A stretch of DNA of 38,030 nucleotides from a virus. Lineage: Duplodnaviria; Caudoviricetes. This document shows positions 8,563 through 38,030 of the stretch, piece after piece (positions within the stretch are counted from its first letter, which is position 1; every line of letters starts with the position of its first letter). The stretch is taken from the IMG/VR virus record IMGVR_UViG_3300038492_000288, positions 1 through 38,030 of that record. One strand, written 5' to 3'. Below the pieces are notes generated by a model. The model was given only the letters and a program-made list of their open reading frames with translations, made no database searches and was not told the DNA's origin. A program made the position numbers and the translations under genes.

Positions 8563-8890
8563 AACTCCAGACGAGCCTTGGCAGGCTGTTTTGTTTGCCT
8601 GCGTTTTCGTATGGTGTGAGCGCAAACCGCCATGCTTTGTGTTCTGGTCTCAGTGGCATGTGACTTACTTCCAGCCTTGCTTCGTCACCTGTTTCCGTTA
8701 TGACTTGTGCTGATAATCCATGCACCTGTGTTTCTGATGACATGGACATCATGCTGCTCAGGATCACGTACTCTTTGATCGTAATTTCTTCGCTGAAAAA
8801 TGATAAAAACTTATTCAGGACAGTGTTTGCATTTTTGAGTAGGTAGTTTTCGAACTTGATGTCACATGGGTTTGATATTGCATAGCTCAT
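8549..8890 (-). CDS. Hypothetical protein
   Basis: 113-aa ORF with ATGA overlaps at both ends; AT-richer than its neighbours. Confidence 0.6.
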   Translation of the reverse strand: MSYAISNPCDIKFENYLLKNANTVLNKFLSFFSEEITIKEYVILSSMMSMSSETQVHGLSAQVITETGDEARLEVSHMPLRPEHKAWRFALTPYENAGKQNSLPRLVWSYASE

Positions 8891-9366
8891 GTCTGCGCCT
8901 CCATCCAGTTGATCAGGTTGTCGACTGCCCAGTCTGGCAGGCTTTCGTGCCCGTTCTCGAATTTGCTGATGTACGCCTGGTTGACGCCTGTTTCTTCTGA
9001 GAGGTCTTTCTGCGACATCCCGTAGCGCAGTCTGATTTTCCTGAGAACCATTTGATCCTCTGATTTCTCGTGATCCATGTTCTGACGCATTTTGCGATTC
9101 TGCCGGCCGCGAGTTTCTGCAATCTCCCTGTAGTAACGCGTGCTGTTTTTCTGGCTTTCGAGTTGTCGCTCGAGGCTTTCTGCTTTCTTCTCAAAGTCAG
9201 TTTTAGCTGTGAAGACTCGAGCCGTGCCGCAGTTCGGACACCAGAATGTTTGCCTGCTGTTGACCCTGTGATTGTACATCGGGTCGCTCATGGCAAATGC
9301 GACGCCACAGCATCCGGGTGTGATGACGTGGTATTCGGTTTCTTCAGTGAATGTACCCATGTTCAT
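8887..9366 (-). CDS. Zn-finger, coiled-coil and XRE HTH regulator
   Basis: GCCG...WCPNCG; LRKIRLRYGMSQKDLS...QAYISKFENG. Confidence 0.8.
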   Translation of the reverse strand: MNMGTFTEETEYHVITPGCCGVAFAMSDPMYNHRVNSRQTFWCPNCGTARVFTAKTDFEKKAESLERQLESQKNSTRYYREIAETRGRQNRKMRQNMDHEKSEDQMVLRKIRLRYGMSQKDLSEETGVNQAYISKFENGHESLPDWAVDNLINWMEAQT

Positions 9367-9776: not shown

Positions 9777-9961
9777 TTACTTTCTTCAGATTTCTTGAAT
9801 TCCCCGCACCAATCTTCCCGTTTAACAAGCGGCCAAACAATTATGTATCTGTCTGGCAAATACTCTTTGGCAGTGACTGGTTGAGGTGGGTATCTTCGGC
9901 ATGCAAGATATCCGATTCCACTGTATGTTGAAAAAAGACAGTTTTCGCATGACTCGCTCAT
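9773..9961 (-). CDS. Small Cys-rich phage protein
   Basis: CENC...CRRYPP...WP.V...DWCGEF. Confidence 0.75.
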   Translation of the reverse strand: MSESCENCLFSTYSGIGYLACRRYPPQPVTAKEYLPDRYIIVWPLVKREDWCGEFKKSEESK

Positions 9962-10351: not shown

Positions 10352-10873
10352 CTATAGGTAGGTGGCTCGTGGTGACACGATTTGTGGGCCGTATTTGGCG
10401 ATCAGTATCGCCTCTGCCCGGTTGTGATCTTTCTTTCTGGTCAGGAACTTGGCGGCTTCTGGATGATGCTTCAGCGCAAATTCGATTGACCTGTTTTTGT
10501 CTTCCTTGATCAGTCCGGCTTTCCGCTTCCATGACATTGGCCAGACTCGATGGATGTTCTCGGTGAACAGTTCCGCAATCGCTCGTGTGGCTCCGAAGGT
10601 GTCACCGCTGGTCACCATGGCGAGTGTACCTCGACCTTTTCCTCCGGGTTTCGATGCAACCATCAGCGCTTCGAGGTAGATCACATCATCTGCTGTGATA
10701 GCCAGGTTCTCGAAGATCGAGTGCAGCGTGATTGGATCCACTTCGTTTCCGGTTTTTTTCGTCCTGGATGGACGCACCGGAGTGTCGAAGACGTGAGTGA
10801 TCTTGAAATCAAGCCGCGAGTCTGCGATTGCGATGGCTCCGGTTATTCCGGGATCGATGCCTATGATCTTCAT
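10352..10873 (-). CDS. RuvC-like Holliday junction resolvase
   Basis: IIGIDPGITGAIA, YLE, P..WK, DHNRAEAILIA. Confidence 0.88.
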   Translation of the reverse strand: MKIIGIDPGITGAIAIADSRLDFKITHVFDTPVRPSRTKKTGNEVDPITLHSIFENLAITADDVIYLEALMVASKPGGKGRGTLAMVTSGDTFGATRAIAELFTENIHRVWPMSWKRKAGLIKEDKNRSIEFALKHHPEAAKFLTRKKDHNRAEAILIAKYGPQIVSPRATYL

Positions 10874-11756: not shown

Positions 11757-12423
11757 TGTGACTTCCTCCGCTGCTTGGTGGGTATGGCAAGAGCCAGCCG
11801 AGATCCATCGCATTGTTTGCTATTGCTTCCTGTGTCCGGTATGAGTGTCGTGTCAACTCGGTCACCAGTCTGCGCAGCATCCTCGCTGTATTGATCGGCT
11901 TTTTCTTGTCGGTCTTCCGGTATTCGAGGAACTCCATCATGACCGGGATGTTCAGATCTGGATTGCTTTTTGTCGCTTCCAGCTCTGCCTCAAATTCTCG
12001 TTTTCTTTTATCTATTTTCTTACTACTCGTAGTGTTATTACTTGTATTAATAGAATTGACTTTTTGATCAAGGGAGCCCTTGACGTTTTGATCAAACAAG
12101 TCACCGGGTTGATTGATCAAAAGATCATGGGGTCTTTCTGCCAGTGTGATTGTTCTTCTTTTTCGTTTCGTGCCTGGGTCGGTGTAAATTTTGACGTTGA
12201 TCAGCTGTTCTCTCTTGAGCGCTGATATCCATCTTGATACGCATTCTTCGCTGACATCGTATGGCTCTGCAAAGTAAGCGTTCGTCGCGGTGCACTCGCC
12301 TGTTGCGTTGGTGAGCGCTGAAATCTCTGACCACATGATTTTTTCCATTGGCTTCAGGTTTTTGTGGTACCGAATGAAGGCAGGCAAAATCGCGTAATAG
12401 CTTCTGTATTCTTGTTGTTCCAT
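11701..12423 (-). CDS. Replication initiator (O-like, N-terminal HTH)
   Basis: YYAILPA.IRY...EISAL....GEC.ATNAYFA..Y.VS...VSRWIS.L; internal iterons. Confidence 0.85.
   Translation of the reverse strand: MEQQEYRSYYAILPAFIRYHKNLKPMEKIMWSEISALTNATGECTATNAYFAEPYDVSEECVSRWISALKREQLINVKIYTDPGTKRKRRTITLAERPHDLLINQPGDLFDQNVKGSLDQKVNSINTSNNTTSSKKIDKRKREFEAELEATKSNPDLNIPVMMEFLEYRKTDKKKPINTARMLRRLVTELTRHSYRTQEAIANNAMDLGWLLPYPPSSGGSHSGRTRSAIGQVIDAGREQ
12000..12120. repeat. Replication origin: iterons plus AT-rich tract
   Basis: TTGATCAA at 12064, 12088 and 12113; TTGAC(T/G)TTTTGATCAA twice; AT-rich 12000-12060. Confidence 0.75.
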
Positions 12424-12439
12424 GTTCACTCCTCAAGGT

Positions 12440-12484
12440 GGGTACTCGGGTGGCTGAGTGAGGGGAGGAATCACCCGAGTACCC
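12440..12484 (-). promoter_or_regulatory. Perfect 13-bp hairpin with C-rich loop upstream of the initiator RBS
   Basis: GGGTACTCGGGTG-N19-CACCCGAGTACCC; minus-strand loop ATTCCTCCCCTCACTCAGC. Confidence 0.65.
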
Positions 12485-12522
12485 TATGCTGTTCCGGGAT
12501 GCCGAGACCCGAAACGACATTT

Positions 12523-13038
12523 TTAATTCAGATCAAGTTTCCCGTTTTCCTTCGGGAATTTATCGCGGATCGGTACCAGTGTCAGTGGCACGTCATCCTG
12601 CAGCAGTTTCTTCGCGATGTCGTAGAATTGCTTGTTCGGATCCGTGATTGAAATCTTGAATTCCAGTGTGAGTTCAAAGCCCACTTCTGCCTTCGCTGTG
12701 AACTTGTCCACCTTGCTGGCTCGGTCTTCGTACTGCTTCGTCTTGACCTTCGGATCGTGGTTGGCAATGACCACCTGATAGCAGTCCTCGTAGCAGGCTG
12801 TGAACTTCATTTCGTCGAGGTTGTTCAGCAGAGGGATGCCGTCTCCATCCCAGAACGCTCCTTTGATCAGTTCTGGTTCAACACCGAAGAGCATGGCAGC
12901 GTTCTCGACTGGTACACGCTCCACTCTGATTCCGAGGTCACATGCAAAGATTTTTTTGTCCGGGCCGTTCTTCTCTTTCCGGTTGTTGAGCGACTTCAGA
13001 AAGGCGCTACTGTGCTTTGTGATTTCTAGCAGGTTCAT
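12523..13038 (-). CDS. Hypothetical protein
   Basis: 171-aa ORF with GGAG SD. Confidence 0.75.
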   Translation of the reverse strand: MNLLEITKHSSAFLKSLNNRKEKNGPDKKIFACDLGIRVERVPVENAAMLFGVEPELIKGAFWDGDGIPLLNNLDEMKFTACYEDCYQVVIANHDPKVKTKQYEDRASKVDKFTAKAEVGFELTLEFKISITDPNKQFYDIAKKLLQDDVPLTLVPIRDKFPKENGKLDLN

Positions 13039-13063
13039 GATTACTCCATGTTGCGGTTGGTGG

Positions 13064-13136
13064 AAATGAAAAAGCCCGGCTTGAGGTGGGGTTGCGCAGC
13101 AGGGGGGAGTGGGTGCGCGTAGGCTTCAAGCCGGGC
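13064..13136 (-). terminator. Long-stem intrinsic terminator (tR1 position)
   Basis: GCCCGGCTTGA...TCAAGCCGGGC then TTTTTCATTT; internal GCGCA/TGCGC stem with a C-rich loop. Confidence 0.7.
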
Positions 13137-13146
13137 CGAATTGAGA

Positions 13147-13253
13147 TTGCTGGCCAAGGCATCACTCATCAGGAAAGTGAGACAGGGAAGAGAAGTGCGA
13201 GAACTCAAACCGTGCCAAGGCCAGCAAAAAACTATGATCTACTTTTCGCACTT
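13147..13253 (-). ncRNA. Candidate antisense/regulatory RNA downstream of cro
   Basis: Stem 13213-13227 with 13147-13161; loop GTTCTCGCACTT is complementary to early-operon leaders and to its own upstream AAGTGCGA. Confidence 0.55.
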
Positions 13254-13270
13254 TTTTATCCTTGTGGGTG

Positions 13271-13465
13271 TTACTCGAGCGCTTGTACCTTGTCGTAAAG
13301 GCCAAGCCGAATTGCGGCGCCCGTCAGTCGGTCTGACCACTTGAGCGGGAGCTCGTCTGCGAGCTGTCCAATGTTCTGCCTGGTGACACCTGTTGCCTCT
13401 GCAACGCTTCGGTCTGTGCCACCAAAAACTTGTTTTGCTTCTGCTTTCGTTTTGATCGTCTTCAT
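13271..13465 (-). CDS. cro: Cro-like repressor
   Basis: 64 aa; KAEAKQVFGG...VAEATGVTRQNIGQ HTH; first gene of the replication operon. Confidence 0.8.
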   Translation of the reverse strand: MKTIKTKAEAKQVFGGTDRSVAEATGVTRQNIGQLADELPLKWSDRLTGAAIRLGLYDKVQALE

Positions 13466-13471
13466 GACTTC

Positions 13472-13580
13472 ATCCTATATCCGCAAATTCTATTGCGCAA
13501 GTATTTTTTCATTTCGTGGCAAATTCTCTTGCATTTTGCCTTTGATCGGAGCAGGATTGTTGTTCATAGATGTGCGAGAA
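13472..13580. promoter_or_regulatory. Divergent early promoter/operator region
   Basis: Leftward TTGCGC-N17-TAGGAT; rightward TTGCAT-N17-CAGGAT or TTGATC-N17-CATAGA; GCAA-N6-TTGC at 13483-13496 and 13519-13532. Confidence 0.65.
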
Positions 13581-13588
13581 AACTTGAA

Positions 13589-13792
13589 ATGTCTGCAGAA
13601 CCTCCACTTAATCCACCTGAAATTTCGCGCCTGGATCGCATTGACGAACGGCTACACGAGTTGATAGAGATGGAATTTGGTTTCAGTGTATCGGCTAGAA
13701 AGATCATGTCGATCGCTGTTGAAATTGAGGACGAGCTGGCCTTGCAAGAACAACTGAACGGGAGAGATATAGATGGAGACAACACTTTCTAA
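13589..13792 (+). CDS. Hypothetical protein (67 aa), first early gene
   Basis: ATG 13589 directly after the promoter region. Confidence 0.6.
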   Translation: MSAEPPLNPPEISRLDRIDERLHELIEMEFGFSVSARKIMSIAVEIEDELALQEQLNGRDIDGDNTF

Positions 13793-13931
13793 ACGCTTAC
13801 CTGATCCGAGGAACCCATGCCGATGGCTTCCCGTCATTTACGTCAGAAACTTTGAATGCAAACACTGCGGTGACACCTCCGTCATTCTGCTGAAGGAGAC
13901 ACGTTGCCCGTCTTGCTCGAGGAGGATTTGA
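13773..13931 (+). CDS. Small zinc-ribbon protein (52 aa, absent from the ORF track)
   Basis: Read by hand: CKHC...CPSC; GGAG upstream; fills the gap between neighbours. Confidence 0.55.
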   Translation: METTLSKRLPDPRNPCRWLPVIYVRNFECKHCGDTSVILLKETRCPSCSRRI

Positions 13932-13933
13932 TC

Positions 13934-14173
13934 ATGTTTGGTTACCTGTTTTTATTCGCGCTGGTGTGGTTCTTCCTGTGGTTCTGGTTCGGGAAAAGCG
14001 CACCTGTTTATACCGATCATTTAACCGATGTCGATGTTGTCTTGGACAACTGTGACCGCTTTGCGATCTGGCACGGTAAGAATGGGCCGAAAATGCGACG
14101 GCATGAAATCGCACAAATAATGCACATGGAGGCATTCTCAAGTGACCGAGAAGAAACCGAAAAAGCTAATTGA
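13934..14173 (+). CDS. Small membrane-anchored protein
   Basis: GGAGG SD; N-terminal F/W-rich TM helix. Confidence 0.65.
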   Translation: MFGYLFLFALVWFFLWFWFGKSAPVYTDHLTDVDVVLDNCDRFAIWHGKNGPKMRRHEIAQIMHMEAFSSDREETEKAN

Positions 14174-14975
14174 TACATTGGCGCTGAAATGGAACACCGA
14201 CCCTTCGAAGTTAATGGGTACTTTGAAGCAGACCTGTTTCCGGTTGCCCGATAAAAACGGACAGCCACAGCATGTAACTGACGAGCAGATGCAGATGCTT
14301 CTGGTTGTCGCAAACGAACACAACCTGAACCCGTTCCTGAAGGAGCTGTTCGCGTTCCCGGACAAGGGTGGCATTGTCCCGATTGTCTCCATTGATGGTT
14401 GGGTCAACAAGGTAAACAGTCACCCGGAATTCAACGGTCTGGAGTTTCGTCGATCTGAGAATGAAATCAAAATCGACGATGACTGCAAGCTGTGCCCGGA
14501 ATGGATGGAGATCATTATTCACCGCAAGGATCGCGATCACCCTGTTGTCATCCGAGAACACCTCGACGAGGTCTATCGTCCCGCCATTGAGAAGACTGGT
14601 TCGAATGGGCCGTACAAGATCAACTCTGCATGGCAGACACACACCAAGCGCATGCTCCGTCACAAGACCCTCATCCAAGGTGCCCGTGTTGCCTTCGGTT
14701 TCTCTGGAATCTACGACGAGGACGAAGCACACCGCATAATCGAAGGCGAGGCCACTGTGGTCACAGATGCTGATCGTATTTCTGTTGGTGAGGCCAATGA
14801 AATACACGAGGCTCTCACTGAGCTGAATGTGAAGCCATCCAAGTTCCTTCAGTATTTCGAGCTGCAAAGCATCGAAGACTTGCCAGCGTCTCGACTCGAA
14901 GAGGTTGGCGTGTTCTTGGATCAGCGTCGCAAGCTGTTGGACAAACCAGAAGAGAAGCCAGCTGATGAAGGTTGA
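14142..14975 (+). CDS. bet: Bet/RecT-family ssDNA annealing recombinase
   Basis: LNPFLKELFAFP, PIVSIDGW, RMLRHKTLIQGARVAFGFSGIYDEDEA. Confidence 0.93.
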   Translation: MTEKKPKKLIDTLALKWNTDPSKLMGTLKQTCFRLPDKNGQPQHVTDEQMQMLLVVANEHNLNPFLKELFAFPDKGGIVPIVSIDGWVNKVNSHPEFNGLEFRRSENEIKIDDDCKLCPEWMEIIIHRKDRDHPVVIREHLDEVYRPAIEKTGSNGPYKINSAWQTHTKRMLRHKTLIQGARVAFGFSGIYDEDEAHRIIEGEATVVTDADRISVGEANEIHEALTELNVKPSKFLQYFELQSIEDLPASRLEEVGVFLDQRRKLLDKPEEKPADEG

Positions 14976-18925: not shown

Positions 18926-18979
18926 GGCAAATTTACTTGACATCTGACCCGGTTAGAGCGACTATAGACCTGCGAGAAC
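18926..18979 (+). promoter_or_regulatory. Early promoter cassette, copy 1
   Basis: GGCAAATTTACTTGACA-N17-GACTAT...CCTGCGAGAAC; same layout as 19719-19772. Confidence 0.75.
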
Positions 18980-19002
18980 AAACAACCGAACAGGAAAATC
19001 TA

Positions 19003-19680: not shown

Positions 19681-19708
19681 GCCACCTCTCACGGGGTGGC
19701 TTTTTTTT
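19681..19708 (+). terminator. Intrinsic terminator
   Basis: GCCACCTC-TCAC-GGGGTGGC followed by T8. Confidence 0.85.
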
Positions 19709-19718
19709 GCCCACAGGA

Positions 19719-19772
19719 GGCAAATTTACTTGACAATCATAGCCGCCAGAGCGAACATAACCCTGCGAGAAC
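19719..19772 (+). promoter_or_regulatory. Early promoter cassette, copy 2
   Basis: GGCAAATTTACTTGACA-N17-GAACAT...CCTGCGAGAAC directly after a terminator. Confidence 0.75.
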
Positions 19773-19793
19773 GAAAACAACTAGGAGAGTGAA

Positions 19794-20039
19794 ATGTCTA
19801 ACAAAATCGCAATTGCAGACGTCATTGATCGAATCATCCTTGCTGGTGGCTCTCTGGAAATCACACGCGAAGAAGCAGACGAAATCATGCTGTACTTCGT
19901 GTCTGAAAACCAACTGATCCCGGATTTGAAAGGCTCACTGATCTTTGCCTCCGGTTTCGAATTCACCGACATCGACATCACATTCATTTGTACGCTGTTC
20001 AGGCAGCGAAAAGAAAACTCACAGGGAGAGAACTCATGA
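19794..20039 (+). CDS. Hypothetical protein
   Basis: AGGAG SD; 81 aa. Confidence 0.7.
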   Translation: MSNKIAIADVIDRIILAGGSLEITREEADEIMLYFVSENQLIPDLKGSLIFASGFEFTDIDITFICTLFRQRKENSQGENS

Positions 20040-38009: not shown

Positions 38010-38013
38010 TTGG

Positions 38014-38030
38014 GATCGTGACTGGGAAAC
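38014..38030 (-). other. Random-amplification primer (reverse complement), library artefact
   Basis: Exact reverse complement of 1-17. Confidence 0.93.

Follow-up and report, generated by a model that had tools for sequence, protein, structure and literature searches.

How does a lambdoid phage that codes for a Cro-like protein, and likely for no CI, shut off its early genes, and does the structured non-coding DNA behind its cro gene take part in this? We considered this question in IMG/VR record IMGVR_UViG_3300038492_000288, which was analyzed whole as a window of 38,030 bases that is classed as linear. PHROGs comparison of 64 ORFs, hand-chosen from 300, gave a lambdoid early region together with head and tail genes, with Bet and Exo coded on the plus strand and the O-like, P-like, resolvase and NinB genes on the minus strand. 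No integrase or CI-type gene was observed at the switch using PHROGs (with these 64 ORFs), Pfam or NCBIfam. The phage thus likely lacks CI, a conclusion made insecure by the CheckV completeness rating of 59% for the record. We infer that the genome is probably near-complete since contigs of runs X1 and X2, both of which are possibly the record's own source, stop at 38011, and since an HNH gene is close to the left record end and the gene preceding terminase is at the right one, an order that we take to be that of the flanks of cos in such phages. The identical 17-base linker at both record ends (1-17 and 38014-38030), which is also present on loose contig ends and creates the apparent upstream region of the last ORF, is probably an amplification product. 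Four DNA runs of one study, two of them possibly the source of the record, showed 0 differences at the locus in the pieces listed and hence supplied no natural variants. A Zn-ribbon and HTH gene located in the PR operon (8887-9366, minus strand), with an MqsA-like architecture that scores below cut-off, is a possible second regulator.

The cro-like protein has a predicted fold with a pLDDT of 95.7, and among known structures it matches P22 Cro best (1rzs, probability 1.00, E 0.047). The Pfam P22_Cro model gives it 15.7 bits, which is below the 30.2 cut-off; its relatives carry Cro/CI family names and the gene precedes O and P. The predicted +1 of PR is the A of the cro ATG (13465-13500, minus strand), hence the cro message would be leaderless. 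Divergent to PR is a predicted PL promoter, and further downstream are two early promoters, P2 and P3, that are duplicates of each other (82% over 28 nt in the 18927 vs 19720 regions, with the -35 region in common), so the P2 and P3 leaders are not independent. An intrinsic terminator at 19681-19710 (plus strand) closes the P2 unit just 5' of P3. The four sigma-70-like promoters are absent from the listing of a generic promoter scan, and the rank of PR in our own scan is circular because the matrix was made from PR, PL, P2 and P3 themselves. All four promoters also carry operator-like palindromes of the form GCAAATT-N3-TTG (13483, 13519, 18927 and 19720, with a further copy at 10476). The corresponding pattern GCAAATTNNNTTG, which was derived from these same sites, is found 5 times versus 0.17 expected, with four copies on the early promoters and the fifth (10476) inside the resolvase gene. 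The four promoter copies are probably Cro operators. The coordinates of these and other features are listed in Table 1.

Table 1. Features of the cro region and of the early leaders; promoters, folds and open segments are predictions.
Feature	Position	Strand	Description
cro-like gene	13271..13465	-	64 aa; predicted leaderless
Predicted PR promoter	13472..13500	-	TTGCGC-17-TAGGAT; read from sequence
Predicted PL promoter	13529..13557	+	TTGCAT-17-CAGGAT; +1 ~13564
Predicted early promoter P2	18937..18965	+	TTGACA-17-GACTAT; +1 ~18972
Predicted early promoter P3, duplicate of P2	19730..19758	+	TTGACA-17-GAACAT; +1 ~19765
Operator-like palindrome GCAA-N6-TTGC in PR	13483..13496		pattern match
Operator-like palindrome overlapping PL -35	13519..13532		pattern match
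Operator-like site overlapping P2 -35	18927..18940		pattern match
Operator-like site overlapping P3 -35	19720..19733		pattern match
Target-motif near-copy AAGUGCGAAAA on the RNA's own strand	13243..13253	-	5' of U6 run and hairpin 1
Hairpin 1	13147..13227	-	9+4 bp stem around 51 nt (13162-13212) that include two small hairpins
Seed 1 (GUUCUCGCAC), predicted open specificity loop	13195..13204	-	unpaired probability 0.86-1.0, opening cost 0.1 kcal/mol
UCCCUGU segment	13182..13188	-	together with UGAGUUCUC (13199-13207) complementary to the full 16 bases of the 20036 RBS
Seed 2 (UCACUUUCCUG), anti-Shine-Dalgarno segment	13170..13180	-	only last five bases predicted open
Hairpin 2 and U-tail	13069..13137	-	12-pair stem (13137-13073), C-rich inner loops
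PL leader target GUGCGAGAA	13572..13588	+	9 bp, extension toward 13589 start codon
P2 leader target GCGAGAAC	18972..18997	+	8 bp and AACCG extension; weak second site CAGGAAA
P3 leader target GCGAGAAC-GA-AAAC and RBS UAGGAGAGUGA	19765..19792	+	RBS 11 bp, two G-U
RBS of gene 20036, ACAGGGAGAGAACTCA	20021..20036	+	7+9 Watson-Crick pairs, 10-nt bulge in RNA

The non-coding gap 3' of cro is 232 nt in length, and a coding reading of it was rejected, its five shadow ORFs having no PHROG match better than E 0.08. Read along the minus strand, the gap has first a near-copy of the target motif (13253-13243), then a U6 run, then hairpins 1 and 2, and last a U-tail. The element spans about 13069-13253 on this strand and, with two hairpins, is larger than first described. 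An earlier note on this DNA had proposed the hairpin 1 stem and two loop segments, and all of these are present in the minimum-energy fold. Specifically, the stem is UUGCUGGCC-UU-GGCA paired with UGCC-UU-GGCCAGCAA, the hairpin (13147-13228, minus strand) has a z of -4.37 with 0 of 200 shuffles folding as well, and the outer stem has a predicted pairing of 0.8-1.0 within the whole cro transcript. Hairpin 2 with its U-tail, the near-copy on the RNA's own strand and the operator-like palindromes are absent from the earlier note. The predicted unpaired probability of seed 1 is 0.86-1.0 over UUCUCGCA, with an opening cost of 0.1 kcal/mol, while seed 2 is mostly paired inside its own hairpin in the predicted fold. 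Hairpin 2 (z -4.58, minus strand) stands at the position of lambda tR1 and, as folded by the model, likely forms with its U-tail the 3' end of the RNA. It is unlisted in the terminator scan because its loop exceeds 8 nt, and the loop has no early-gene preference (p 0.81). The promoter matrix scan predicted no promoter of the RNA's own. The upstream near-copy, which is located 18 nt past the cro stop and forms inverted repeat I25 with the 13193-13203 copy, can form an 8-bp helix with seed 1 (rank 26 of 1,367), with this cis pairing having a predicted energy of -25.7 versus -33.9 kcal/mol for the hairpin fold.

The element was proposed to be complementary to DNA just downstream of each early promoter, and the listed matches are where the earlier note had placed them. 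TGCGAGAA is present at 13573, 18971 and 19764 as well as in the loop itself at 13196, CAGGAAA is at 18991, AGGAGAGTGA is at 19783 and ACAGGGAGAGAACTCA is at 20021. If transcription starts at 18972 and 19765, as predicted, the leading T is left out of the RNA, and the core that is common to the three leaders is 7 nt, GCGAGAA. The predicted duplexes have energies of -20.6 kcal/mol at the PL leader (p 0.003 versus loop shuffles) and -19.9 at the P2 leader; at P3 they are -18.8 for the seed site and -16.4 for the RBS, where seed 2 forms an 11-bp helix with the 19794 RBS. A suggested extension of the pairing into the following AAAC was reproduced at P3 with its GA/GA internal loop; at P2 the 2-nt bulge is visible, but the energy model prefers AACCG. 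The seed and RBS sites at P2 and P3 are in crossed order, which makes one continuous duplex impossible. Nowhere else in the genome is there a 16-mer match like that at the 20036 RBS (0.027 expected). Predicted folding is weak in the leader regions (z +1.2 to +1.9), and the early target genes are unnamed in Pfam and NCBIfam. The PL leader also contains an upstream ORF (13570-13587, plus strand) of five codons (MCEKT) that ends 1 nt before the 13589 start; the 13589 gene is without a clear Shine-Dalgarno sequence, and the seed 1 site covers codons 1-4 of the MCEKT ORF.

We then asked how far this complementarity exceeds chance, with tests that were all designed after the matches were known. By count the four copies of TGCGAGAA are at chance level (14 of 100 shuffles). 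By position, Watson-Crick complementarity of 9 nt to the 51-nt loop is found in 5 of 18 early start regions (13589, 14965, 19003, 19794 and 20036) and in 0 of 40 other start regions, one of which reaches 8, with start codons for both sets hand-picked. Dinucleotide shuffles of the loop never reached 9 nt in all three first-gene leaders (0 of 3,000), reached it for PL plus one duplicate in 4 of 3,000, and reached five start regions at 8 nt in 17 of 3,000. At 9 nt this is the sole locus among 73,816 windows that matches at least four early start regions; with the length lowered to 8 nt, five are reached at two further genomic sites as well. The -32 edge of the start regions, which just includes the P2 motif, had been chosen knowing the motif, and the test was therefore redone with leaders cut at the predicted +1. 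Under this setting at least 8 Watson-Crick bases against all three leaders are found only here among 75,541 windows of 51 nt (both strands, cis-antisense windows excluded), and about a dozen places reach 7. When the 7-nt core was fixed and the rest of the loop shuffled, the match to the three leaders was equaled in 3 of 2,000 shuffles, that to the P3 RBS in 15, that to the 20036 RBS in 9, and the total in 0. The claim that the second segment complements two Shine-Dalgarno sequences holds at P3; at P2 the CAGGAAA match is present but not significant (371 of 2,000). Shuffling the flanks of each leader gave only borderline values (79, 106 and 119 of 2,000). Multi-target complementarity is beyond chance by position and by combination.

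Genome-wide ranking is less selective. The three leaders, which the earlier note had expected at the top of a pairing scan, rank 10, 13 and 17 of 1,367 helices when accessibility is included, behind matches inside coding regions of which the first is a 12-bp match inside terL. Ranked by plain duplex energy, which is uninformative without accessibility, they are at 78, 93 and 497 of 1,342. CAGGAAA alone occurs 12 times in the genome. When G-U pairs are allowed early genes are modestly favored overall (p 0.025), and two late-gene RBS regions, 29111 (15 bp) and 24862 (11 bp), both on the minus strand, pair as strongly as the targets; these are possible off-targets, or a possible late-gene brake.

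We consider it reasonably probable that a two-hairpin, C4-like antisense RNA from the cro 3' region silences the three early units alongside Cro. The direct basis for this reading is sequence, positions and complementarity statistics, with the folds, the promoters and the Cro fold being predictions. Under this reading transcription from PR would yield a cro message that has no leader and in part stops at hairpin 2. Hairpin 1, either as the 3' part of this message or after cleavage near the U6 run, would expose seed 1, which would pair with the GCGAGAA located at, or close to, the start of the PL, P2 and P3 messages. Neighboring loop segments would cover the start region (PL), the Shine-Dalgarno sequence (P3, and weakly P2) and the whole of the 20036 RBS. 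The duplex at PL would by itself extend to the start region; at P2 and P3, seed 1 stops >20 nt short of the start codon, and would thus serve as a toehold, or as a trigger of termination or decay, with seed 2 acting on the P3 RBS. We favor blocked translation as the outcome, to which early termination or decay may be added. In the precursor, seed 1 could be kept paired to the upstream self-site, in a fold that is 8 kcal/mol less stable than the hairpin. Since Cro would close the same promoters at the GCAA-N6-TTG sites, one transcript could give a two-layer early shut-off.

How large a share of the silencing the RNA might carry is a separate issue. Of the earlier proposal that one small RNA silences the dispersed early units, the complementarity beyond chance and outside of the shared motif stands. 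The RNA is probably neither the sole nor the principal silencer of the early genes, given the operator-like palindromes on all four early promoters and the predicted P22 Cro fold of the protein coded upstream. We regard as improbable a stronger version in which the RNA replaces CI, reading the first eight bases of every early message and maintaining a silent carrier state. Were it so, immunity in a phage with Cro and no repressor or integrase would come from a 7-9 nt seed and not from a protein. If the two-layer reading is true, an RNA layer would be added to the textbook Cro shut-off, reaching several dispersed operons via a common 5' signature, and this would explain early-gene timing in CI-less lambdoid phages. 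Its weight is limited by its origin in a single uncultured genome.

The shared motif could also act without any antisense RNA. GCGA(G/A)AA may be a same-sense cis signal, either a nut-like RNA or a DNA protein site, that is present in all four early transcripts, in which case the loop would contain the inverted mate of a DNA site, with the hairpins serving as terminator structure only. In line with this, the motif is found after PL and 18 nt past the cro stop, positions that we take to be those of lambda nutL and nutR; it begins at the predicted +1 in P2 and P3, and the 13193-13203 and 13243-13253 copies are an inverted pair. Such a signal does not, however, predict the significant pairing outside of the core or the 16-base match to the 20036 RBS. 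The motif is also not palindromic, Cro has separate operator-like sites, and the PL leader is without a put-like fold. We consider this reading unlikely, and favor RNA-RNA pairing over a bare protein site because the complementarity is beyond chance and reaches outside of the shared motif. A shade less likely is that the element is a generic CU-rich anti-Shine-Dalgarno RNA, or a plain terminator, with the seed match arising from a duplicated promoter plus chance. The chance-level 8-mer count, the P2/P3 duplication and the equally good G-U pairing of late RBS regions would all fit this, as would a weak Rfam likeness to anti-hemB (RF02837, 21 vs 49.5 bits) and to a toxic small RNA (RF02278, 13.6 vs 50 bits), with both scores below the gathering thresholds and the match mostly to the terminator. 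Cross-locus noise also reaches 9-11 nt. What this reading leaves to coincidence is that two uncommon events occur together, namely a 7-mer that PL has in common with P2 and P3 (107 of 10,000 PL shuffles) and the complement of that 7-mer in the loop (96 of 10,000 loop shuffles). In addition, seed 1 is not an anti-Shine-Dalgarno sequence, and the locus is unique genome-wide.

The strand of the RNA raises a further alternative. Match statistics cannot separate a complement on one strand from identity on the other, and the two stems, which consist almost entirely of Watson-Crick pairs, can form on both strands, with hairpin 2 more stable on the plus strand (-38.4 vs -29.0 kcal/mol on the minus strand). 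The functional RNA could then be a plus-strand one, either a PRE-like antisense transcript over cro, or a decoy in which leader-like motifs of the same sense soak up a leader-binding protein. The best plus-strand promoter candidate (13147, TTGCTG-17-CAGGAA) resembles PL, but its -10 is without the last T and it ranks 563. Furthermore, a U-tail follows hairpin 2 only on the minus strand, with neither hairpin having one on the plus strand, and the minus strand is the sense strand of all of the flanking genes (cro, 13038, O and P). We assign the RNA to the minus strand because the flanking genes run that way, because of the U-tail, and because the plus strand has no good promoter, given that the fold does not fix the strand, and we hold a plus-strand RNA to be very unlikely.

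The proposed minus-strand antisense RNA can be compared with known systems. C4 of phages P1/P7 is a discrete RNA of ~77 nt after processing, and Cuckoo RNAs have repeated CCUCCUCCC hairpin loops. Both families had been named in the earlier note, and neither they nor any other Rfam family gave a match at family thresholds. For C4 (RF01695, cut-off 45 bits) there was none at E<=1 in the window or at E<=10 in 12900-13700, with positive controls for the model scoring 66 and 65 bits (L044 and L046, among 16 loci scanned); for Cuckoo there was no Rfam match, and the loops of the element are without CCUCCUCCC. The likeness to C4 consists of a size of ~80 nt, a long closing stem around small hairpins and an RNA that is probably cut from a longer transcript. 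C4 is described as having three stems, a tetraloop and loops a' and b', with one loop for upstream specificity and another for the RBS (PMC5320573). Here the two-loop arrangement is present by complementarity only, with seed 1 directed upstream and seed 2 directed at the P3 RBS and weakly at P2. Unlike C4, hairpin 1 has no tetraloop hairpin, its inner hairpins having 11- and 7-nt loops, and the GGW at the P1 5' end (an RNase P site) is absent, the arm instead beginning UUGCUGG. C4 is also located in immI with icd and ant1/2, whereas the predicted targets here are three dispersed early units in a phage that shows no lysogeny genes, and no antirepressor family was found among the 64 ORFs with PHROGs.

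P4 CI RNA causes premature transcription termination, and N15 CA RNA is a phage antisense RNA that uses short loop-target pairings. P4 CI RNA is described as processed from a primary transcript and pairing with a complementary site upstream of itself (PMC4825925). The target near-copy just 5' of hairpin 1, with its 8-bp site, is similar to this. The element differs in having no adjacent downstream seqC-like site, with the other minus-strand TGCGA[AG]AA only at 9949, 3.2 kb downstream, and in that its best targets are other transcripts, divergent or distant. The element is not a C4-family member and probably not a P4 CI one, though it would work like them if functional. Double-hairpin toxic sRNAs of Burkholderia have CU-rich unpaired anti-RBS stretches (PMC5688073). 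RF02278 and RF02837 resemble the element in such stretches and in the GCCCGG/CCGGGC-U-tail 3' end of the predicted fold; it differs from them in being twice as long, phage-encoded and equipped with a non-SD seed matched to phage leaders. In HK022, putR is ~270 nt from PR, and put is described as two similar two-stem-loop RNAs, each of ~70 nt, that follow PL and PR (PMC9378689). The present element is likewise a two-hairpin one behind cro, about 240-400 nt from PR. However, the PL leader folds worse than shuffles (z +1.15), leaving no similar structured partner after PL, and the loop is complementary rather than identical to the PL leader in an element that ends with a terminator-like U-tail. 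Phage antisense RNAs described as acting on the phage's own genes (OOP, aQ, sar, sas) control one locus each (PMC12197685), and by analogy CI and C4 also appear to control one locus each, unlike an RNA with several operons. The proposed RNA would thus differ from known phage antisense RNAs in targeting several dispersed early operons. In the literature judged by title and opening lines, with most subscription journals outside coverage, there was no cro-derived RNA against several early leaders and no match for antisense shut-off of early leaders in lytic phages.

Searches for relatives of the locus returned no close one in the collections covered. Against phages, blastn of 12400-14200 gave no match and the RNA alone gave 7 short matches, none covering >15%; viral scans with Cro, protein 12523 and the ATPase gave none, and a word-based search with Cro and 12523 returned only themselves. 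A Bet search gave 28 loci that are 42-60% identical and a 51-residue fragment at 76%, all without similarity at the DNA level beyond bet. A profile-library search retrieved 51 further Cro-like proteins, which are 39-62% identical in those cases for which a value is stated. The 16-mer loop pattern has 11 matches, of which none sits in a comparable hairpin or is associated with genes of the window. A promoter-plus-seed pattern gave 119 loci, 4 of which have Bet or Exo homologues; one candidate relative from this search (L071) was rejected, its match lying inside a coding region. Phage D3, which is among the nearest isolates (terminase 51%), was also set aside, as its 1-nt cro-cII gap leaves it with no such element.

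The Cro profile had 34 matches in the fetched loci. After dropping duplicates, incomplete loci and three loci without a divergent gene, we compared the 200 nt behind cro with the divergent leader in 18. Just two loci stood out, namely the window, with 9 nt (13 of 500 shuffles), and L041, with 11 nt (0 of 500). L041 is a distant, cI-less locus in which a post-cro hairpin with a U-tail (1124-1195) contains an 11-nt complement to the RBS of the divergent gene. Its layout, with ORFs read by eye, is like that of the window: cro, a hairpin with a U-tail, a small gene, and O- and P-like genes. The window and L041 RNAs each match their own leader better than that of the other. The L041 loop could instead pair in cis with the RBS of the next gene, and of the 9 other loci in which the divergent gene, read by eye, does not resemble cI, only 1 has the pattern. 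Unrelated loop-leader pairs reach at least 9 nt in 12 of 306 cases, and once 11 nt. L041 therefore gives weak support to the reading of an anti-leader RNA.

Other arrangements behind cro were also observed among these loci. L057 (1251 onward) and L058 (491 onward), which are kin of L041, have a methyltransferase-like gene at the cro stop that replaces the long hairpin. The cI-less phage loci L018-L020, L022 and L023 have in common a structured non-coding motif ~15-60 nt behind cro, for which there was no Rfam match at gathering threshold in the four that were scanned. Another cI-less locus, L061, has a small CCUCCU-loop hairpin plus terminator directly behind cro (1063-1115). Finally, two loci with cI have C4 RNAs 260-270 nt behind cro (L044 2654-2738 and L046 4479-4563), and their Cro proteins are close to a cluster named from Acidithiobacillus.
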